This document shows positions 38,672-52,214 of a stretch of 64,000 nt of DNA, in pieces. The notes beneath the pieces were generated by a model that saw only the letters and a list, made by a program, of their open reading frames with translations, was not told the origin of the DNA and made no database searches. Made by a program: the position numbers and the translations under genes. Source of the stretch: Akkermansia sp. (GTDB taxonomy: Bacteria > Verrucomicrobiota > Verrucomicrobiia > Verrucomicrobiales > Akkermansiaceae); the NCBI GenBank assembly GCA_045652085.1, contig JAZRTR010000043.1:3613-67612 (forward strand), written 5' to 3'. Every line of letters starts with the position of its first letter. Position 1 is the stretch's first letter.

Positions 38672-39466
38672 TCAGAGGGAAATGCCCAGCTGCTCCGGTA
38701 GGGCTATGCGGGGACGCTCAGTCAGTATCTCGCCACCATGGGAACCTACTGCTACGGTGTGCTCGAAGTGGGCTGCCCACGAGCCGTCCGCTGTTACCGC
38801 TGTCCAGTCATCCTCCAGTACTTTCACCCGGAAACTACCCAGAGTAATCATGGGTTCGATGGCCAGAATCATACCGCGTTTGAGGCGGGGAAGGGGGTAT
38901 TTGGGGCGGTAGTTCGGAATCTGCGGCTCTTCATGGAGCTTGCGGCCTACGCCGTGCCCCACATAATCACGCACGATACCGAAGCCATACTGCTTAACAA
39001 AGTCCTCAATTGCACCACACACGTCAGCCAGAGAATTGCCTTGCTTTGCTTCTGCAATCCCACGGAACAGGCATTCCTCCGTCACAGCCAGCAGGCGGCG
39101 GGCATCCTCGCTCACATTACCTACAGCTACTGTCATGGCATTGTCACCGTACCAGCCATCCACGATGGCTCCGGCATCCAGAGAGACGATGTCGCCGTCC
39201 TGTATCACACGCGACCCGCCGATTCCATGTACAATCTCTTCATTTACGGAGATGCACAGCTGTCCGGGGTACCCGCAGTAGCCAAAGAATGCATTACCGC
39301 ACTTTTCCCGCTTGAAGAGTTCTGCTGCGTAATCATCAATCTCCTTGGTGGTGATGCCCGGACGTATGATGGGCATGAGGTCCATGAGAATGCGTGCCGA
39401 TACTTCGCCGGCTTTGCGCAGTTTGCTGATTTCGTTCGGATTGCGTACGGGGATGCGTTCTGCCAT
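38672..39466 (-). CDS. map: type I methionine aminopeptidase
   Basis: From Met13 of the track ORF (MAERIPVRNPNEISKLRKAG). Metal-ligand contexts SLDAGAIVDGWYGDNA, GHGVGRKLHEEP, LAIEPM, FEHTV. Confidence 0.9.
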   Translation of the reverse strand: MAERIPVRNPNEISKLRKAGEVSARILMDLMPIIRPGITTKEIDDYAAELFKREKCGNAFFGYCGYPGQLCISVNEEIVHGIGGSRVIQDGDIVSLDAGAIVDGWYGDNAMTVAVGNVSEDARRLLAVTEECLFRGIAEAKQGNSLADVCGAIEDFVKQYGFGIVRDYVGHGVGRKLHEEPQIPNYRPKYPLPRLKRGMILAIEPMITLGSFRVKVLEDDWTAVTADGSWAAHFEHTVAVGSHGGEILTERPRIALPEQLGISL

Positions 39467-39640
39467 GTTAATCTGGATGCTGTTTGCAACAGTATAGCAC
39501 ATGGGGGCGAAAATGCAAGCCCTGATGAGGCTGCTCTGTTACACAGTTGTAACACTCTGCCTTCATTTTCTGCTCGATTTGCCCGGGGCTTTATGCTAGA
39601 CTGCGTTCGTAAAAGAAATTTTAACCCGAATTATAAACAT

Positions 39641-40981
39641 ATGGCACTACATATTCAAATGAGTGAAGAGGCTGAGGCCCAGCTGAGAAAGGAGGCGTTT
39701 AAGAATAAGCTCTCCTCTGTTCTGGCCTGCGTACTCTTCCTTGGCCTGGGCGGCTTGATGCTTTATGTATCAACCGTGCTTATCATGGGTGATACTCCGG
39801 TATCCTTCCTGTCCTATACACCTCCTCAGGAAGATGGCCCTCCCACCAACAATCCCACTCCGCGTGAGTTGACATCCCGTTCTTCCGCTTCTTCTTCCTC
39901 CGTGGCTCCCTCCGTTATCGTGGCTACAAGTGCTTCCACGATGGCCATGGCTCCGGTGGAGATTGATATGAGTGATGGTATCTCTCTGGACAGCTCCTTC
40001 GATATCGGCATGGGCTCTTCCGATTTGGGTGATGGTCTGGGTGATGGCGGTAGCGGTCTTGGCAGTGGTCAGGCCGGCGGTTCTGCTCTGACTGGTACTT
40101 TCTATGACCTGAAGCAGACAGGATCTCGTAATTCCCGCCGAGTATCTCCTCTTGCTCAGCGTGATGGTAACGGTATTCTTAAGATTAACCGTAATCAGTA
40201 CTATGAGGTGCTTGCTAAGTTCATTAACAGTGGCTGGAATACCTCTCAGCTGAGCCGTTATTATGAATCTCCTCAGAATCTGTACGCCTCAAACTTCTAT
40301 GTACCTGTGGCTCTGGCTCGCTACGCTCCTATTGCCTATCAGGTGGGTGATCCCAATAAGCCTGAGAATCAGTGGGTGTGCCAGCCTTCCGGATGGTGCG
40401 TGGTGTACCGTGGCCGCGTTCGCGCTCCCAAGACCGGTAGGTTCCGTTTTATCGGCATGGGTGACGACTGCATCGCGGTGCGTTTCAATCGCCGTCTGGT
40501 GCTGGAAGGTGGCTATCGTCTGATTTCCGCATTTGATCCTGCTCAGAATGGTGGTCCTAAGTTCCAGCTTTCCACACCTGCTGGTCGTGAGGCATTCCTT
40601 GCGGACGTTCGCAATGGCCGTGACCGTGAGCACAAGGGATATGAGCTCATTAACACGATTCAGGGCCTCGGCGTGTGGGGGCGTGAACTTGGTGGCCTGA
40701 TGGCCGGTGCTGAGTTCGAGGTGAGGGAAGGTCAGGTATATCCCATTGAAATTCTGGTGGCAGAAGAAGGTGGTAAGTTCGGTTTCGTGCTGTTCATTGA
40801 GGATATTACGAATGGTAAGAACTCCCGTGCTACGCAGTACGATCTTTTCCGTACGAACTTCTCCGCTCCTACTGCTGATGAGGTTAATGCCATGCTGCGT
40901 GAGGCTAGGTGCAATGACCCCAGCAACGTGATTAGCATTCCTTATAACGAAGATTCTCCCATCTGGACAGCAGTTCCGTAA
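39641..40981 (+). CDS. membrane-anchored protein with Ser/Gly-rich linker and PA14-like beta-sandwich C-terminal domain
   Basis: Real start taken at 39641 (MALHIQMSEE...), because the upstream part of the 747-aa track ORF is antisense to map. TM VLACVLFLGLGGLMLYVSTVLIMG. Linker SRSSASSSSVAPS...GDGLGDGGSGLGSGQAGG. C-domain GTFYDLKQT...GRFRFIGMGDDCIAVRFNRRLVLEGGY...GQVYPIEILVAEEGGKFGFVLFIE resembles PA14/GLEYA folds. Confidence 0.5.
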   Translation: MALHIQMSEEAEAQLRKEAFKNKLSSVLACVLFLGLGGLMLYVSTVLIMGDTPVSFLSYTPPQEDGPPTNNPTPRELTSRSSASSSSVAPSVIVATSASTMAMAPVEIDMSDGISLDSSFDIGMGSSDLGDGLGDGGSGLGSGQAGGSALTGTFYDLKQTGSRNSRRVSPLAQRDGNGILKINRNQYYEVLAKFINSGWNTSQLSRYYESPQNLYASNFYVPVALARYAPIAYQVGDPNKPENQWVCQPSGWCVVYRGRVRAPKTGRFRFIGMGDDCIAVRFNRRLVLEGGYRLISAFDPAQNGGPKFQLSTPAGREAFLADVRNGRDREHKGYELINTIQGLGVWGRELGGLMAGAEFEVREGQVYPIEILVAEEGGKFGFVLFIEDITNGKNSRATQYDLFRTNFSAPTADEVNAMLREARCNDPSNVISIPYNEDSPIWTAVP

Positions 40982-41010
40982 GCTGTTTGTTGATTGCAGA
41001 TGACACAAAG

Positions 41011-41046
41011 GAAGAGCCGCAGTATTCGCTGCGGCTCTTCTTTTCT
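41011..41046. terminator. hairpin terminator between convergent genes
   Basis: GAAGAGCCGCAG-TATTCG-CTGCGGCTCTTC (12 bp perfect) followed by TTTTCT. Confidence 0.7.
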
Positions 41047-41087: not shown

Positions 41088-41852
41088 TTATTTTCTGCGA
41101 TTGGCATGGGTGCCGGTTTGGCCTGCTTCACGCTCGAGCGCTCGTTGTTTCCAGAGCGGTAGGGTGTTTTTTCTGGCCTTGGCCTTTCGTTTGCGCTCTC
41201 GGCGTTCGGCAGCACGGGCTTGTTCCTCTGCTATTTTCTGCTCTTTTTCTCGCGCGAGGCGTGCTTCTTCCATTCGTTTCTGAATGCGGGAGGAGTGCTC
41301 GCTGCCGGCTGCGGTAATGGTCCAAGGACAGCGGGGATCCGTGCCGGATTCCGTGATGGGCAGGCAGACCATATCCGGGTCTATGAAGCGGATTTGGCGG
41401 TAAAGGAGGTCTTTTATCGTGGCTAGAAGGCTTTTGGGCGGAAAGAGGCCAGTGCGGGCGAGTTCGATGGTGAAGGCTACTCTGATGTGCTTGGCCTGCA
41501 GGCTCATGCGTGCTATGTCTCTCAGGGAAATGCCTTCAGCCGGTTCTTCTTCCGGCGCGCAGAGGGCTGCTGTACGCAGCAGGAAGAGGCAGTCCCTCAC
41601 TTTGCGGCAAAGTTTTTCCACGAGGTCTCGCACCTTGGGGCGGGCATTGAAGCGGTAGTCTTTCACCTCAATGAGCCAGAGCTCTTTCTTGCCGGGGTGG
41701 TACAGCACGAAGTCCATCTCCTTGCAGCTGTTGCAGAAGTTCTGGGCATGGTGGGAGTAGAAGGGGGAGCACTCGAAACGGCACACGTAATAGCCCGCTT
41801 CAAAGTTGAAGCGGTGAAGCCCTTCCACACAACTGGTACCGGCCTGAAACAC
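41088..41852 (-). CDS. PD-(D/E)xK-like nuclease-fold protein with K/R/E-rich C-terminal tail (partner of the upstream ATPase)
   Basis: GTG start 2 nt after the ATPase stop. Core ...CKEMDFVLYHPGKKELWLIEVKDYR gives D47...E62-V-K64, a classical PD-(D/E)xK arrangement. C-terminal RIQKRMEEARLAREKEQKIAEEQARAAERRERKRKAKARK. Confidence 0.5.
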   Translation of the reverse strand: MFQAGTSCVEGLHRFNFEAGYYVCRFECSPFYSHHAQNFCNSCKEMDFVLYHPGKKELWLIEVKDYRFNARPKVRDLVEKLCRKVRDCLFLLRTAALCAPEEEPAEGISLRDIARMSLQAKHIRVAFTIELARTGLFPPKSLLATIKDLLYRQIRFIDPDMVCLPITESGTDPRCPWTITAAGSEHSSRIQKRMEEARLAREKEQKIAEEQARAAERRERKRKAKARKNTLPLWKQRALEREAGQTGTHANRRK

Positions 41853-41854
41853 GT

Positions 41855-42943
41855 TTATGCCGGTTGAGAGGGTTCGAAGTTCATATTCAGGTAGCGGTCT
41901 GCCTGTTCCATTTCTGCTTCCAAACTGTCAATGTGGTCAATCTCATCCAGCGCTTGTCCTGAGGACGTACGTACTCCTCGCTGATTATCCTGAGGTGGTT
42001 GTAGCCCGAAGAAGCGGCGACTGAGTTTTTCATTTGGTTTTTCGGCAAGTTGAATGACGAGTTCCCTCAGCAGGAAGAGGCTGTGTGTGGTAAGCATAAT
42101 CTGCACTCCGGCGCGGCAAAGGCCGAGAATGATGCTTACCAGTAGGGGGAGATGGGATGTGTTCAGGTTCATTTCCGGTTCATCCCAGAAAAGCGAGGTG
42201 CCGCTGCGCACAGTGCCATTGCCGATGAGCAGACCGAGTGTGCCGATGCGTTTGAAGCCTTCAGCCACGAGGTTCAGTTCCAGCGGCTCTTGCCCTGGGC
42301 GCTTCAGGTAAAAGCGGCCATTGATGCGCTGAAGGTTGCCGGAGAGAAGTTTTTCAATTTGGAGGATGACGTAGCGCAGGGGCTCAGGCACAGGCGTGGC
42401 GGTAGGCTCTTCTTCCAGCGCTCGGCAGAGCTCCCAGCTTGCGGAGTCCAGCAGTTCAGGATAGCGCTTACCCGCCTGCATGTAGCAGGGGTAGATGGAA
42501 AGCACCTCGCGCGGGGAAATGAATACGGCATTCTCACTTAGAAAGCGCTGAGGCAGTTTCTTTATGTGCAGGCCTTCTTCTTCATGCTCTGCTGTGAAGT
42601 GGAAATCCAGTTCAGCTGAGCCCGGCGGTACTTTTTGTCCTTCTAGTGAGGCATGAAGGTGAGCTATGCCATTGCCGCGGTTCCTCGCTGTGAGGGAGGT
42701 GAGGTTCTGAGTGCCGAAAACTCGCAGCAAGTCACGTCTCAGCCGCTTCTCTTCTGCCCACACCTCAGGTAGCTCTCGTCGTGTGCCACCACATCCCCAT
42801 TTTGTGATGGAGTAGCATAGCTTCATGAGATGGCTTTTCCCGGAATCATTGCCGCCCACGATGATGTTTACACCCGGTACAAAGGTGAACATTTCGCGCT
42901 GCGGAAATACCGTAACACCCTCCACTGAAAGCTTTCTTATCAT
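41855..42943 (-). CDS. ABC/SMC-type ATPase of the AAA_15/AAA_21 (OLD/AbiL/Septu-like) class
   Basis: Walker A VGGNDSGKSH (K36), ABC-signature-like LVAEGFKRIGTL, Walker B SLFWDEPEMNL (D254 E255), H-loop MLTTHS. No TM or transporter partner. Confidence 0.8.
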   Translation of the reverse strand: MIRKLSVEGVTVFPQREMFTFVPGVNIIVGGNDSGKSHLMKLCYSITKWGCGGTRRELPEVWAEEKRLRRDLLRVFGTQNLTSLTARNRGNGIAHLHASLEGQKVPPGSAELDFHFTAEHEEEGLHIKKLPQRFLSENAVFISPREVLSIYPCYMQAGKRYPELLDSASWELCRALEEEPTATPVPEPLRYVILQIEKLLSGNLQRINGRFYLKRPGQEPLELNLVAEGFKRIGTLGLLIGNGTVRSGTSLFWDEPEMNLNTSHLPLLVSIILGLCRAGVQIMLTTHSLFLLRELVIQLAEKPNEKLSRRFFGLQPPQDNQRGVRTSSGQALDEIDHIDSLEAEMEQADRYLNMNFEPSQPA

Positions 42944-42950
42944 ACCTGAT

Positions 42951-42979
42951 ATTCTATCTTATTATGAGGTGTTTGACAA
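42951..42979 (-). promoter_or_regulatory. candidate promoter of the ATPase-nuclease pair (TTGTCA-N17-TAGAAT)
   Basis: Minus strand: TTGTCA (42979-42974), 17-nt spacer, TAGAAT (42956-42951), then 7 nt to the ATG at 42943. Predicts a leaderless transcript. Confidence 0.3.
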
Positions 42980-43136
42980 TAAAGAAATCCCAACGAGCGC
43001 TAAAAGTTTCAAGAGTTGACCTTTTATAATGGTTCTCCGTTATTTTTTTCGAAGGGGATATTCAGAACTCGGGTCTGCTGCGGTATGACTTTTCGTCTGC
43101 TTGCCATGGGGGCGTGCCGTGTGATATGATGAAGTC

Positions 43137-43775
43137 ATGACCGATCAGGATAAAATGAAGAAAGTGATGGGGTATCTCATCGGCTATCGTCTCGGTAGCC
43201 AGATGCTGCCCCAGATGCTGCCCGGTATCGAGGCTGATGACGTGGTGGCTGATATGCTCGCCAAGGGCGTAAAGGATGGCATTTCCGGTGATGCTGATAT
43301 GAGCATTATTGATGAGAAAGTGGAGGAGTACCAGAGCGCCTTCGTTAGCATGCTGCAGGAACGTGGCAAGAAAGCAGGTGAGGCCAACTTGGAAAAGGGC
43401 CGCCTTTACATGCAGGAGAATGGCAAGCGCGCTGAGGTGACCACTACTGAAAGCGGTTTGCAGTATGAGGTGATTGTTCCTGGCGGCAGTGAGAAGTATG
43501 ACGCGGCAGTGCATGGTGATGCCCCTACCGCTGAGGTGATGTACAAGGGTACGCTTGTGGATGGTACCGTGTTTGATCAGTCTCGCCAGCCTGTTAAGTT
43601 CAATATCCGTCAGGTTATCCCCGGTTTCACCGAGGCTCTGAAGCTTATGCCCGTGGGTGCTAAGTGGAAGGTGACCATCCCGGCCAACCTTGCATATGGT
43701 GCTAATGGCCCCGGTAGCATCGGCCCGAACTCTACGCTTATCTTTGAGATGGAACTCATCTCCCTGACTAAGTAA
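43137..43775 (+). CDS. fklB: FKBP-type peptidyl-prolyl cis-trans isomerase (FklB/Mip-like, no signal peptide seen)
   Basis: GLQYEVIVPG...VMYKGTLVDGTVFDQS...PVKFNIRQVIPGFTEALKLMPVGAKWKVTIPANLAYG...IGPNSTLIFEMELISL. Confidence 0.9.
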   Translation: MTDQDKMKKVMGYLIGYRLGSQMLPQMLPGIEADDVVADMLAKGVKDGISGDADMSIIDEKVEEYQSAFVSMLQERGKKAGEANLEKGRLYMQENGKRAEVTTTESGLQYEVIVPGGSEKYDAAVHGDAPTAEVMYKGTLVDGTVFDQSRQPVKFNIRQVIPGFTEALKLMPVGAKWKVTIPANLAYGANGPGSIGPNSTLIFEMELISLTK

Positions 43776-46073: not shown

Positions 46074-47411
46074 ATGCCCCCGTACATGCGTAAATATGTT
46101 ATCAGGCGCCTGCTTTTGATGCCCGTCACTTTGATAGGCATCACTTTCGTGGTGTTCTGCCTTACTCGCATGGTACCCGGTGGTCCTGTGGATAGAATCC
46201 TTCAGGAGCAGGCTATCGGAGCTTTATGTGGAGAGCATTCTTCCGGTTCCAGTTGTGCCATGGTTAGTGAGCCGGATATTGAACGCCTTGAGGAAATTTT
46301 TAACCTTCAGGAACCCGTGTGGTTGGCCTACTTGCAGTGGTTAGGTATTCGCCGCCGCGAGGTGGAAATTGCTAAGGCTGAGTTTGGTGATGATGATATG
46401 GCTGAGCTTATCGTGACTTCATTGAGCGGGAACTCGTCTGTTATTGAAGTGCACAGGGAAGGAAATACTGTAAACTATACTCCTGAGCCCTGGTTTACTG
46501 AGGAAGGGTGGCGTATACGCTTGGAAGACCCCATGCGCCGCGCGGAGCGTCGCGCCCGGCGCCTTGGTGTGACTGATTCAGCCGCTATTAGTGAGATTGC
46601 AAAGAGTCCCGGCTGTTCTCGCTGGAGGGTTGTGGCGTATAGAAAGGCTTATGATGGCTTGCTGCAGGGCTGTCTCGGCCGCTCATACAAGTATAATGAG
46701 CCCGTGGCGGATATGATGCTGGAACGCTTGCCGGTATCCCTTTATCTGGGGATATTGGGTGTGTTGATTGCCTATCTCGTGAGTATTCCGTTGGGAGTGT
46801 GTAAGGCGTTGAATCATAATGGGATTTTTGATGGCGTGTCCAGTCTTTTCATTTTTGTGGGCTACGCAGTGCCGGGGTTCGCGCTGGGTGCCGTACTTTT
46901 GGTGTATTTGGGGGCACGCTTGGAGTGGTTCCCCTTGTATGGACTCACAAGCCCGGATTTTGCAACGATGAGCTGGGGTGATAAGATTAAGGATTTGGCC
47001 AGCCATACCGTACTTCCTCTAAGCTGTTACGTGGTATCTTCCTTCGCCATGATTACCATGATGATGAAGAATAATCTCATGGGGCATATCTCAGCAGATT
47101 ATGTGCGCACAGCCGTGGCTAAGGGGGTGCCGTTCCGTCGTGCCGTGTGGCGGCATGCATTCCGCAATTCCATTATTCCGCTGGCCTCCACATTAGGGAC
47201 TACGCTCTGCGGTGTGGTGGCCGGCTCTCTCCTCATTGAGCGGGTATTTGATATTCAGGGCTTTGGTATGCTGAGTTTCCAAGCGCTTATGGATAAGGAT
47301 TATTCACTTATCATGGGAACGCTGCTGCTGAACTCTGTTTTAATCGTAGTGGGAAACCTGCTATCTGACATTCTGGTAGCTTTCATAGATCCTCGCATCC
47401 GTTTCGACTGA
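46074..47411 (+). CDS. peptide-type ABC transporter permease (DppB/YejB-like) with enlarged first loop
   Basis: MRKYVIRRLLLMPVTLIGITFVVFCLTRMVPGGPVD. C-terminal ...ADYVRTAVAKGVPFRRAVWRHAFRNSIIPL (EAA loop). Likely start 46086. Confidence 0.8.
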   Translation: MPPYMRKYVIRRLLLMPVTLIGITFVVFCLTRMVPGGPVDRILQEQAIGALCGEHSSGSSCAMVSEPDIERLEEIFNLQEPVWLAYLQWLGIRRREVEIAKAEFGDDDMAELIVTSLSGNSSVIEVHREGNTVNYTPEPWFTEEGWRIRLEDPMRRAERRARRLGVTDSAAISEIAKSPGCSRWRVVAYRKAYDGLLQGCLGRSYKYNEPVADMMLERLPVSLYLGILGVLIAYLVSIPLGVCKALNHNGIFDGVSSLFIFVGYAVPGFALGAVLLVYLGARLEWFPLYGLTSPDFATMSWGDKIKDLASHTVLPLSCYVVSSFAMITMMMKNNLMGHISADYVRTAVAKGVPFRRAVWRHAFRNSIIPLASTLGTTLCGVVAGSLLIERVFDIQGFGMLSFQALMDKDYSLIMGTLLLNSVLIVVGNLLSDILVAFIDPRIRFD

Positions 47412-51233: not shown

Positions 51234-52214
51234 ATGTCTGACGAAAATCTGCTGCAAGTTCACCATCTCACTACGGCCTTTGATTCAGAGGTTGGTCTGT
51301 TGCAAGCGGTGGATGATGTGAGCTTTAATGTGCCGCGCGGGCAGTGTGTGGGCATTGTGGGCGAGAGCGGTTGCGGTAAGAGTGTGACGGCGATGAGCCT
51401 GTTACGCCTGCTGCCAAAACCGCACAGCCATATTCTGGGCGGAAAGGTGCTTTTTGATGGTGAAGATATACTGCGAATGAAGCCCCGCAGGCTTAATGAG
51501 GTGCGTGGCGGCAGAATCGGCTTTATTTTTCAGGAGCCTATGAGCGCTCTTAATCCGGTGCACCGCGTAGGTGACCAGATAGCGGAAACTCTTATGCTGC
51601 ACCGCGGTATGTCACGTGATGCCGCTTGGCTGGAGGCTATCAATATGCTGCACTTTGTGCGTATTCCGGATCCAGAATCGCGCGTGAAAGAGTTTCCCGG
51701 CTCTCTCTCCGGGGGTATGCGCCAGCGTGTAGTGATTGCTATCGCTCTGGCTTGTCGTCCTGAGCTCATCATTGCTGATGAGCCGACTACTGCGCTGGAT
51801 GTCACCGTCCAGCAGCAGATTCTTGCCCTTATCCGTGAACTGCGTGAAAAAATGGGCTCTTCAGCCGTGCTTATTACACATGATTTGGGGGTGATTGCGC
51901 AGAACTGTGACCGGGTAGTGGTGATGTATGCCGGCCGTGTGGTGGAAAGTGCCGGGGTGAAAGAGCTCTTTGCTAATCCTCGGCATGCCTATACCAAGGC
52001 CTTGCTCGCCTCCATGCCGCGCCTAGAATACCCCAGAAAGAGCCATCTGCCCACCATTCCCGGTCAGGTGGCCGCCATTCGTGACTACGTGCCCGGTTGT
52101 CGCTTTTGCCAGCGTTTGGCGCGCACGGGGGATACGTTAAAGAAGCGCCCTCCCATGGTGGAAGTTGCTCCCGGGCACCTGGTGGAAGCATGCCCGCTGT
52201 GTGCTCAGTTCTGA
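51234..52214 (+). CDS. peptide-type ABC transporter ATP-binding protein (OppD/DppD-like)
   Basis: GESGCGKS Walker A, LSGGMRQR signature, IIADEPTTALD Walker B, C-terminal oligopeptide-ATPase extension with Cys residues. Confidence 0.9.
   Translation: MSDENLLQVHHLTTAFDSEVGLLQAVDDVSFNVPRGQCVGIVGESGCGKSVTAMSLLRLLPKPHSHILGGKVLFDGEDILRMKPRRLNEVRGGRIGFIFQEPMSALNPVHRVGDQIAETLMLHRGMSRDAAWLEAINMLHFVRIPDPESRVKEFPGSLSGGMRQRVVIAIALACRPELIIADEPTTALDVTVQQQILALIRELREKMGSSAVLITHDLGVIAQNCDRVVVMYAGRVVESAGVKELFANPRHAYTKALLASMPRLEYPRKSHLPTIPGQVAAIRDYVPGCRFCQRLARTGDTLKKRPPMVEVAPGHLVEACPLCAQF

Follow-up and report, generated by a model that had tools for sequence, protein, structure and literature searches.

This work concerns two adjacent minus-strand genes, called A and B, in a stretch of 64,000 nucleotides from Akkermansia sp. 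(assembly GCA_045652085.1, contig JAZRTR010000043.1, positions 3,613 to 67,612 of the forward strand). The whole stretch is referred to as the window, and all coordinates count from its first letter. Gene A encodes an ATPase of the ABC (ATP-binding cassette) type and gene B a predicted nuclease of the PD-(D/E)xK superfamily. We assign the pair, as a divergent member, to HEC-02 (Hma-embedded candidate 02), a known system composed of an ABC ATPase and a NERD protein of the PD-(D/E)xK superfamily (Payne et al. 2024, bioRxiv 10.1101/2024.01.29.577857). The limits of the genes, of their expression signals and of the parts of protein B are collected in Table 1.

Table 1. Features of the A-B locus, in window coordinates, with the description or the evidence for each
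Feature	Position	Strand	Description or evidence
Gene A	41855-42943	-	ATG start, 362 aa, HEC-02 ABC-type ATPase
Gene B	41088-41852	-	GTG start, 254 aa, NERD-like PD-(D/E)xK protein
Promoter footprint	42951-42989	-	consensus scan with 10/12 matches; cross-species conservation
GC-rich hairpin	41007-41044		terminator scan; inverted repeat I2, 94% complementary
Gene B residues 1-187, NERD-like PD-(D/E)xK core	41292-41852	-	PADLOC, BLASTP, family conservation
Gene B residues 188-230, E/K/R-rich helix (ER/K-type spacer)	41163-41291	-	composition; AlphaFold2 model
Gene B residues 231-254 and stop, basic C-terminal motif	41088-41162	-	conservation within the clade

Layout and expression signals of the gene pair

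A HMMER search for relatives of gene B yielded 268 representative clusters at E<=1e-3. Such a relative is encoded in 108 species-representative genomes, and 80 of the loci were fetched and compared. Nearly all of the fetched loci were labelled Akkermansia or Akkermansiaceae, a few being listed as "uncultured Verrucomicrobiales" or "uncultured bacterium". Both genes are real, since homologues were present at each of the 80 fetched loci and their ratios of nonsynonymous to synonymous substitution rates (dN/dS) were low. In the window, only 2 nt lie between the stop codon of gene A and the start codon of gene B, the junction reading GCA TAA AC GTG, just as a preliminary description of this DNA had stated. 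Gene A was found directly upstream of gene B at 80 of the 80 loci, and the gap from stop to start measured 2 nt at 53 of them.

The pair is co-transcribed from its own promoter and translationally coupled. The promoter-like site on the minus strand consists of TTGTCA (42979-42974), a spacer of 17 nt and TAGAAT (42956-42951). It is preceded by GATTTC at 42989-42984, the form taken in the window by a conserved CATTTC just upstream of the -35 element. The block CATTTC..ATTGYMA-17-TAGAAT-7-ATG was kept in 15 species, the sequence farther upstream being unalignable. What remained constant across species, whatever the flanks, was the promoter together with genes A and B. The -10 element TAGAAT is separated from the ATG of gene A by 7 nt only, which suggests that the mRNA is leaderless or nearly so.

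At the other end of the pair, a GC-rich hairpin with a stem of 12 bp (41040-41011) is located where gene B (stop at 41088) and a membrane-protein gene on the plus strand (stop at 40981) converge. This hairpin was kept in four close relatives (loci L001, L002, L004 and L007), two of which (L002 and L007) have CGG/CCG in place of CAG/CTG, a compensatory change; it is likely a bidirectional intrinsic terminator. The preliminary description had assigned to the pair a promoter of its own and a shared convergent terminator; the conservation of footprint and hairpin across species supports both assignments.

A different arrangement was observed at loci L005, L009, L016, L020 and L028, where the stop of gene B is followed at a distance of 20-45 nt, on the same strand and without a hairpin in between, by a small, often duplicated lipoprotein-like gene (flank cluster c2). 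It occurs in this way in many Akkermansia species, in which it may be co-transcribed with the pair, and is absent at this position in the window.

The ATPase and the predicted nuclease

Gene A carries a Walker A motif G30-GNDSG-K36-S37 (42833-42856, codon of K36 at 42836-42838), a signature-like sequence A227-EGFKR, a Walker B motif L251-FWDE255 (42173-42193) and an H-loop T285-T-H287-S, and all of these were invariant among 20 family members. In Pfam, AAA_21 alone scored above the cut-off (5e-14), AAA_15, AAA_23 and SMC_N being sub-threshold, and no transporter, coiled-coil or Toprim domain was found. The preliminary description, which had reported a complete ABC/SMC-type motif set and the lack of these three domain types, was thus correct on both counts. 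Neither Pfam nor NCBIfam provided a specific name beyond the generic AAA_21, and a search of PDB sequences with protein A returned no match at E<=0.01. The AlphaFold2 (AF2) model of gene A had a mean predicted local distance difference test score (pLDDT) of 82.6 and a predicted template modelling score (pTM) of 0.85. With this model, Foldseek retrieved SMC/Rad50 heads and PtuA proteins of Septu or of retrons, with E-values from 7e-14 to 1e-10. Among them were the SMC heads 5h68 and 4i99 (E about 1e-13, template modelling (TM) score 0.53-0.60) and PtuA of Septu and of retron I-A/Ec78 (8eea, 8sux, 9n69 and 9nnb; E about 4e-12 to 1e-10). Gene A therefore encodes an ABC ATPase head of the SMC/Rad50 kind that lacks a coiled coil.

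Gene A diverges faster than gene B, with identities of 52-98% versus 73-98% over the fetched loci. Its variable positions cluster in three segments (91-120, 181-190 and 301-335) that spare the catalytic motifs, a pattern that would fit a sensor subunit.

Gene B carries D47 and E62-V-K64, encoded at 41712-41714 (D47), 41667-41669 (E62) and 41661-41663 (K64). An alignment of its family comprised 59 sequences with a mean identity of 25%. In this alignment E62 was invariant, and D47, K64, D65, Y66, K84, D87, E130, D158 and W177 were each conserved in at least 90% of the sequences; the conserved D...ExK core agrees with the preliminary description. NERD was the commonest Pfam match in the family, with 8 members out of 59 and a best E-value of 5e-5. 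An NCBIfam search with gene B gave nothing, and a search of PDB sequences with the family profile produced three chance-level matches only (E>=0.45).

In the AF2 model of gene B (pLDDT 80.9, pTM 0.71), the core adopts a beta-beta-beta-alpha-beta-beta-alpha topology, with D47 at the start of strand 48-52 and both E62 and K64 within strand 57-66. The top of the Foldseek list for this model, with no entry reaching significance (E>=0.06), consisted almost entirely of PD-(D/E)xK enzymes. Hjc and Mus81 led this list, which further included FAN1, RecU, cap-snatching endonucleases, PspGI, HincII, HindIII and BstEII. The long helix of the tail probably lowers the Foldseek scores of the full-length model. 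Gene B is predicted to be a NERD-like PD-(D/E)xK nuclease with a D47...E62-x-K64 site, an assignment for which homology and motif conservation give good support and the fold search weak support. Its relation to NERD is remote, at the level of the superfamily, and draws in part on the structural alignment in Fig. S6C/D of Payne et al.

Ahead of the nuclease core, gene B contains a CxxxC...CxxC pattern (C24, C28, C40 and C43; 41721-41783), which was conserved within the Akkermansia clade only and may constitute a zinc site there. A zinc site common to the whole family was considered and rejected, given this restriction to one clade and the low confidence of the model around residues 39-41.

Beyond the core, gene B ends in a K/R/E-rich helical tail, as described before. 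Residues 188-230 are composed to 58% of E, K and R, and AF2 predicted one long helix from 188 to 228, with a pLDDT of 83-94 for the block, followed by a short helix from 233 to 242. Over residues 188-254 the net charge amounts to +13. The length and the sequence of the ER/K helix vary inside the Akkermansia clade. It leads to a C-terminal motif L-P-L-W-K-Q-R-A-x-E-R-x-x-G-x-x-G-x-H-A-D/N-R-R, in which P232 and G244 were invariant among 28 clade members and W234, R237 and R241 at least 90% conserved. A six-frame scan of the 80 fetched loci found PLWKQR 80 times, and among the other open reading frames (ORFs) of more than 100 aa none had a WK-type variant of the motif; in the window, PLWKQR occurs in gene B only. 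Relatives outside the close clade have 167-185 aa and align to residues ~7-180 of gene B only. Because these remote relatives stop at about residue 180, the last ~75 residues of gene B were added in a single clade, Akkermansia. A function as spacer plus docking peptide, tethering the protein to nucleic acid or to the ATPase, is speculative.

Assignment to HEC-02, distribution and rival explanations

The assignment to HEC-02 was obtained with the hidden Markov models (HMMs) of PADLOC-DB v2.0.0, the E-values being those of the models themselves. Gene A matched PDLC04146 at 1.3e-64 over residues 1-354 and model positions 1-342 of 344, and matched the HEC-02 models PDLC04213 and PDLC04214 as well. 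Gene B matched the HEC-02 model PDLC04145 at 1e-21 over model positions 6-154 of 170, and remote relatives of gene B did so at 1e-27 to 1e-62. The match of gene B corresponds to a model coverage of 88% and a target coverage of 61%, the latter being low because of the tail; the PADLOC pipeline adds rules for whole systems and its own limits on E-value and coverage, and a strict cut-off on target coverage could therefore miss gene B.

The tested HEC-02 pair comes from Dickeya dianthicola NCPPB 3534 (WP_024108366.1 and WP_024108365.1; Table S2 of Payne et al. 2024). In BLASTP, gene A aligned end to end with the tested Dickeya ATPase (30% identity, 356 columns, E=6e-49), and residues 6-179 of gene B aligned with essentially the whole Dickeya NERD protein of 169 aa (29% identity, E=5e-19). 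The best models of the Dickeya pair were the same two, PDLC04146 and PDLC04145 (8e-183 and 1e-85). HEC-02 lowers phage plaquing in Escherichia coli, both genes being required; its ATPase was proposed to sense infection and to license the nuclease, and HEC-02B was described as NERD-like with a (D/E/Q)xK motif (Payne et al. 2024). The Akkermansia pair has a homologous ABC ATPase, a NERD-like partner with the motif, and adjacent genes on the same strand with the ATPase upstream. It is not embedded in Hma or another defence system, its flanks in the window being map, a membrane-protein gene, fklB and rimO. Embedding in Hma was a criterion of discovery and no requirement, the cassettes being widespread irrespective of Hma (Payne et al. 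2024).

Two observations on naming belong here. The PADLOC labels of PDLC04145 and PDLC04146 are reversed with respect to the paper, the nuclease model being called "HEC-02A" and the ATPase model "HEC-02B", so that gene A is HEC-02A in the naming of the paper while its best PADLOC model is labelled "HEC-02B". The tested Dickeya NERD protein is annotated as "cysteinyl-tRNA synthetase" in RefSeq.

Pfam confirmed three housekeeping neighbours of the pair, map (Peptidase_M24), fklB (FKBP_N and FKBP_C) and a gene for a radical-SAM protein of the RimO/MiaB type. The preliminary description had named map and fklB and had added a "PA14-like" gene, a label for which there was no Pfam hit at E<=0.001. 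These flanks differ between species and are not conserved across the genus. The membrane-protein gene and map downstream of the pair are common to the closest relatives only, whereas fklB and rimO upstream are common to a wider group. Other species have different housekeeping neighbours, identified by eye as Mfd, FabH, ribosomal proteins S11/S13, WaaA, RsmD and GlnA-III. A search of metagenomes for empty sites, anchored on fklB, showed that in more distant lineages the pair is missing from the vicinity of fklB; since it is located at other places in such lineages, fklB without the pair is no proof of its absence. In a divergent genome of the Akkermansia clade (locus L164, 8766-16499, GCA_964418985.1), a phage-type integrase comes directly after the pair, and then a type I restriction-modification (R-M) system (HsdR/M/S) and another integrase. 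No second context of a defence-island kind was observed.

The reading of the pair as an inserted accessory cassette, put forward in the preliminary description, is weakly supported. The variation of the flanks between species is in its favor; against it, direct or inverted repeats bounding the pair as insertion scars were looked for in the window and not found, no step in GC content occurred at the boundaries of the pair, the window contains no integrase, no defence genes lie nearby, the pair was intact at every fetched locus, and substitution rates were core-like. A universal core operon at one locus is borne out in part only, relatives of gene B being present in 108 species-representative genomes but with flanks that are not conserved genus-wide.

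Pairwise dN/dS relative to the window lay between 0.02 and 0.15 for genes A and B in most comparisons and rose to 0.33 (A) and 0.19 (B) in the most distant locus; the values for the adjacent fklB and rimO were 0.01-0.05. Synonymous divergence (dS) was comparable between the pair and these two genes: at locus L001 it was 0.62 (A) and 0.64 (B) versus 0.27 (fklB) and 0.40 (rimO), and at locus L005 1.45 (A) and 1.33 (B) versus 1.39 (fklB) and 1.86 (rimO). The operon is inherited vertically under purifying selection across Akkermansia. In other organisms, the family resembles mobile defence cargo. Three viral contigs of IMG/VR carried complete A-B pairs, relatives occurred on two fecal "Bacteriophage sp." contigs, and relatives of gene A with about 30% identity were found on plasmids of cyanobacteria, proteobacteria and clostridia. 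One of the plasmid pairs adjoins YoeB/Phd and an integrase, and one plasmid ATPase an N-6 methylase.

Three observations concern other genes of the window. The ORF of 747 aa at 38738-40981, to which the "PA14-like" label refers, extends too far and overlaps map on the other strand; the true start probably lies near 39646, so that the protein would begin with MALHIQ... and continue into a hydrophobic segment. Inside fklB, a perfect 12-nt tandem duplication (CCAGATGCTGCC x2, 43199-43222) encodes QMLPQMLP in the FKBP N-terminal domain. The ORF at 51234-52214 matched the PADLOC models mad3 (2e-29) and mad8 (1e-14); we rejected it as a defence gene since it lies downstream of a permease gene (BPD_transp_1, 46074-47411) and is most likely an ordinary ABC-transporter ATPase.

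As a whole, the data are best explained by a divergent Akkermansia orthologue of HEC-02, that is, a two-gene anti-phage system in which an ATPase licenses a nuclease, and we assign a probability of about 0.72 to this explanation. A defence role is our best reading of the pair. Several results weigh against it. The flanks are housekeeping genes, no PADLOC defence match was found within about 10 kb on either side, and the pair was intact at all 80 loci. These flanks, the missing defence matches, the genus-wide retention and the core-like dN/dS and dS are all atypical of defence systems, which are usually patchy and borne on islands. Gene B itself had no Pfam hit, falling below the gathering threshold of NERD (PF08378) and giving no NERD match even at E<=1, and its full-length model gave no significant Foldseek match in the PDB (best E=0.06, TM about 0.3). 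All functional data derive from a single preprint, in which a system with 30% identity was expressed in E. coli. The tested HEC-02 lacks an equivalent of the 75-residue tail, and regulation or targeting may therefore differ.

Part of these results would suit a domesticated genome-maintenance module, acting in repair, in the processing of recombination intermediates or in chromosome handling like a miniature Rad50/Mre11 or a RecF-type ATPase with a nuclease. Relatives of gene B in 108 species genomes and an intact pair at every fetched locus, substitution rates like those of fklB and rimO, housekeeping flanks and the missing defence matches within about 10 kb all agree with it. So do the nearest folds of gene A, which are SMC and Rad50 heads, and the best, non-significant, fold matches of gene B, which are Holliday-junction resolvases and Mus81. 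We nevertheless hold this explanation to be unlikely, since the pair is clearly orthologous to a system for which an anti-phage phenotype has been demonstrated. The housekeeping context is uninformative here, as HEC cassettes in general show no enrichment in the vicinity of other defence genes (Payne et al. 2024). It also varies by species, an integrase and a type I R-M system being the immediate neighbours of one copy. A core repair function would also be at odds with the wider family, whose members are dispersed over plasmids and phage-like contigs in various phyla. Furthermore, the heavily sequenced A. muciniphila may lack the pair, as suggested by the absence of RefSeq-style species names among the matches and by small contig counts.

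The persistence of the pair despite changing flanks could also reflect selfish addiction of the toxin-antitoxin (TA) type, with a nuclease toxin restrained by the ATPase and a loss that would be lethal. Pfam annotates AAA_21 as "putative AbiEii toxin, Type IV TA system", genes A and B are tightly coupled and never separated, and a plasmid relative lies among TA modules. Addiction alone, however, rarely yields core-like purifying selection on both partners over a dS of more than 1 and in more than 100 species. Both genes of the tested HEC-02 were needed for defence, with no mention of single-gene toxicity in the text of Payne et al. that was consulted. We regard this explanation as very unlikely; it overlaps mechanistically with defence by abortive infection and is in this respect not cleanly separable from the HEC-02 reading.

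The preliminary description had seen in the pair an undescribed defence system with a superficial likeness to small-ATPase systems. The lack of a specific name in Pfam and NCBIfam, public annotations that read only "AAA family ATPase" or "hypothetical protein", and a 75-aa nuclease tail absent from described members speak for this view. It is refuted by full-length homology to the tested HEC-02 pair and by matches to the same PADLOC models, the combination of an ATPase with a PD-(D/E)xK/NERD protein being the exact definition of HEC-02, and we consider it extremely unlikely. The pair maps cleanly onto a named system, and the claim of novelty fails.

A variant of the HEC-02 assignment takes the tail as its starting point. 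The Akkermansia operon would be a fixed, vertically inherited derivative of HEC-02, in which the ER/K arm with its basic peptide docks the nuclease on a host structure or on an ATPase oligomer. The outcome would be a new regulation or targeting or else a partly domesticated, non-immune role, and this could explain the core-like behavior. We advance this variant tentatively and judge it rather improbable.

If the pair acts as an HEC-02 defence system, as we prefer, gene A would, by analogy to HEC-02 and to further defence systems with ABC ATPases, be the sensor and regulator, and its variable segments 91-120, 181-190 and 301-335 might read the infection cue. ATP binding or hydrolysis by gene A would then license the gene B nuclease to cut DNA, and this cutting would stop the phage directly or lead to abortive infection. 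The rigid charged helix of gene B, with its basic motif, could tether or dock the nuclease to the ATPase or to nucleic acid. Licensing of a nuclease by an ATPase is also what the PtuA-PtuB complexes suggest, whose structures are similar.

What is gained is, on the one hand, the removal of a false lead to a novel system: the pair is an HEC-02 that Pfam, NCBIfam and RefSeq naming had overlooked. On the other hand, HEC-02, tested from a gammaproteobacterium only, is now extended to gut Verrucomicrobiota. Known phages of these bacteria are few, and Akkermansia is under development as a probiotic. A defence-type operon under core-like selection in more than 100 species presents a case for studying when immunity stops being accessory, and the tail adds to this case. 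The gain, practical and conceptual, is modest unless the tail or the genus-wide fixation reflects a new mechanism.

Comparison with known systems

The ATPase of gene A belongs to the same superfamily (AAA_15/AAA_21) as those of PARIS (AriA), Gabija (GajA), OLD, AbiL and PD-T4-4. Its PADLOC matches to these systems were partial (AriA 4e-14, PD-T4-4_A 7e-9, GajA 3e-8, AbiLi 3e-7), spanning the C-terminal ATPase lobe or the Walker A region only. The partners in these systems are Toprim/DUF4435 or other effectors, whereas neither Toprim nor DUF4435 was found in genes A or B with Pfam or with the PADLOC models. Membership in Gabija, PARIS, OLD, AbiL or PD-T4-4 was rejected on account of the partner domain and of the partial HMM matches.

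Septu (PtuA-PtuB) and the PtuAB modules of retrons I-A/Ec78 are closer in architecture, as they also combine an SMC/Rad50-like ATPase lacking a long coiled coil with a small nuclease encoded directly downstream, and PtuA was among the best structural matches to gene A. According to the working model for the Septu structures, an ATPase oligomer holds the nuclease and regulates it in a nucleotide-dependent manner. The Septu effector, however, is an HNH nuclease, whereas gene B is PD-(D/E)xK-like. No PtuA model figured among the 25 best PADLOC matches listed for gene A, and a PtuA model was matched by the viral-contig relative only (3e-12). We therefore rejected membership in Septu, the partner not being HNH and the sequence similarity between gene A and PtuA being weak. 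As for the nuclease alone, NERD proteins (PF08378) and archaeal resolvases of the Hjc type share with gene B the D...ExK arrangement, which in the model of gene B is placed on a beta-beta-beta-alpha core; gene B differs in remaining under the Pfam threshold and in the level of its structural matches, which are not significant (E>=0.06, TM about 0.3).

The closest counterpart is the HEC-02 of Dickeya. In both pairs the ATPase gene comes first and the NERD-like gene second, with stop and start abutting (a gap of 2 nt here, an overlap of 4 nt in Dickeya), and both share the nuclease motif WLIEVKDYR, Walker A, Walker B and the H-loop. They differ in the scores against the models, 216 and 76 bits for the Akkermansia pair versus 605 and 284 bits for the tested one. 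The Akkermansia nuclease has 254 aa instead of 169 aa, the additional features being the ER/K-type helix, the basic C-terminal motif and the four-cysteine pattern. The Akkermansia pair is moreover inherited vertically across the whole genus and not patchy. Compared with the tested HEC-02, the Akkermansia pair thus brings three new elements: a clade-specific nuclease tail, a promoter footprint placed 7 nt from the ATG and retention throughout the genus.

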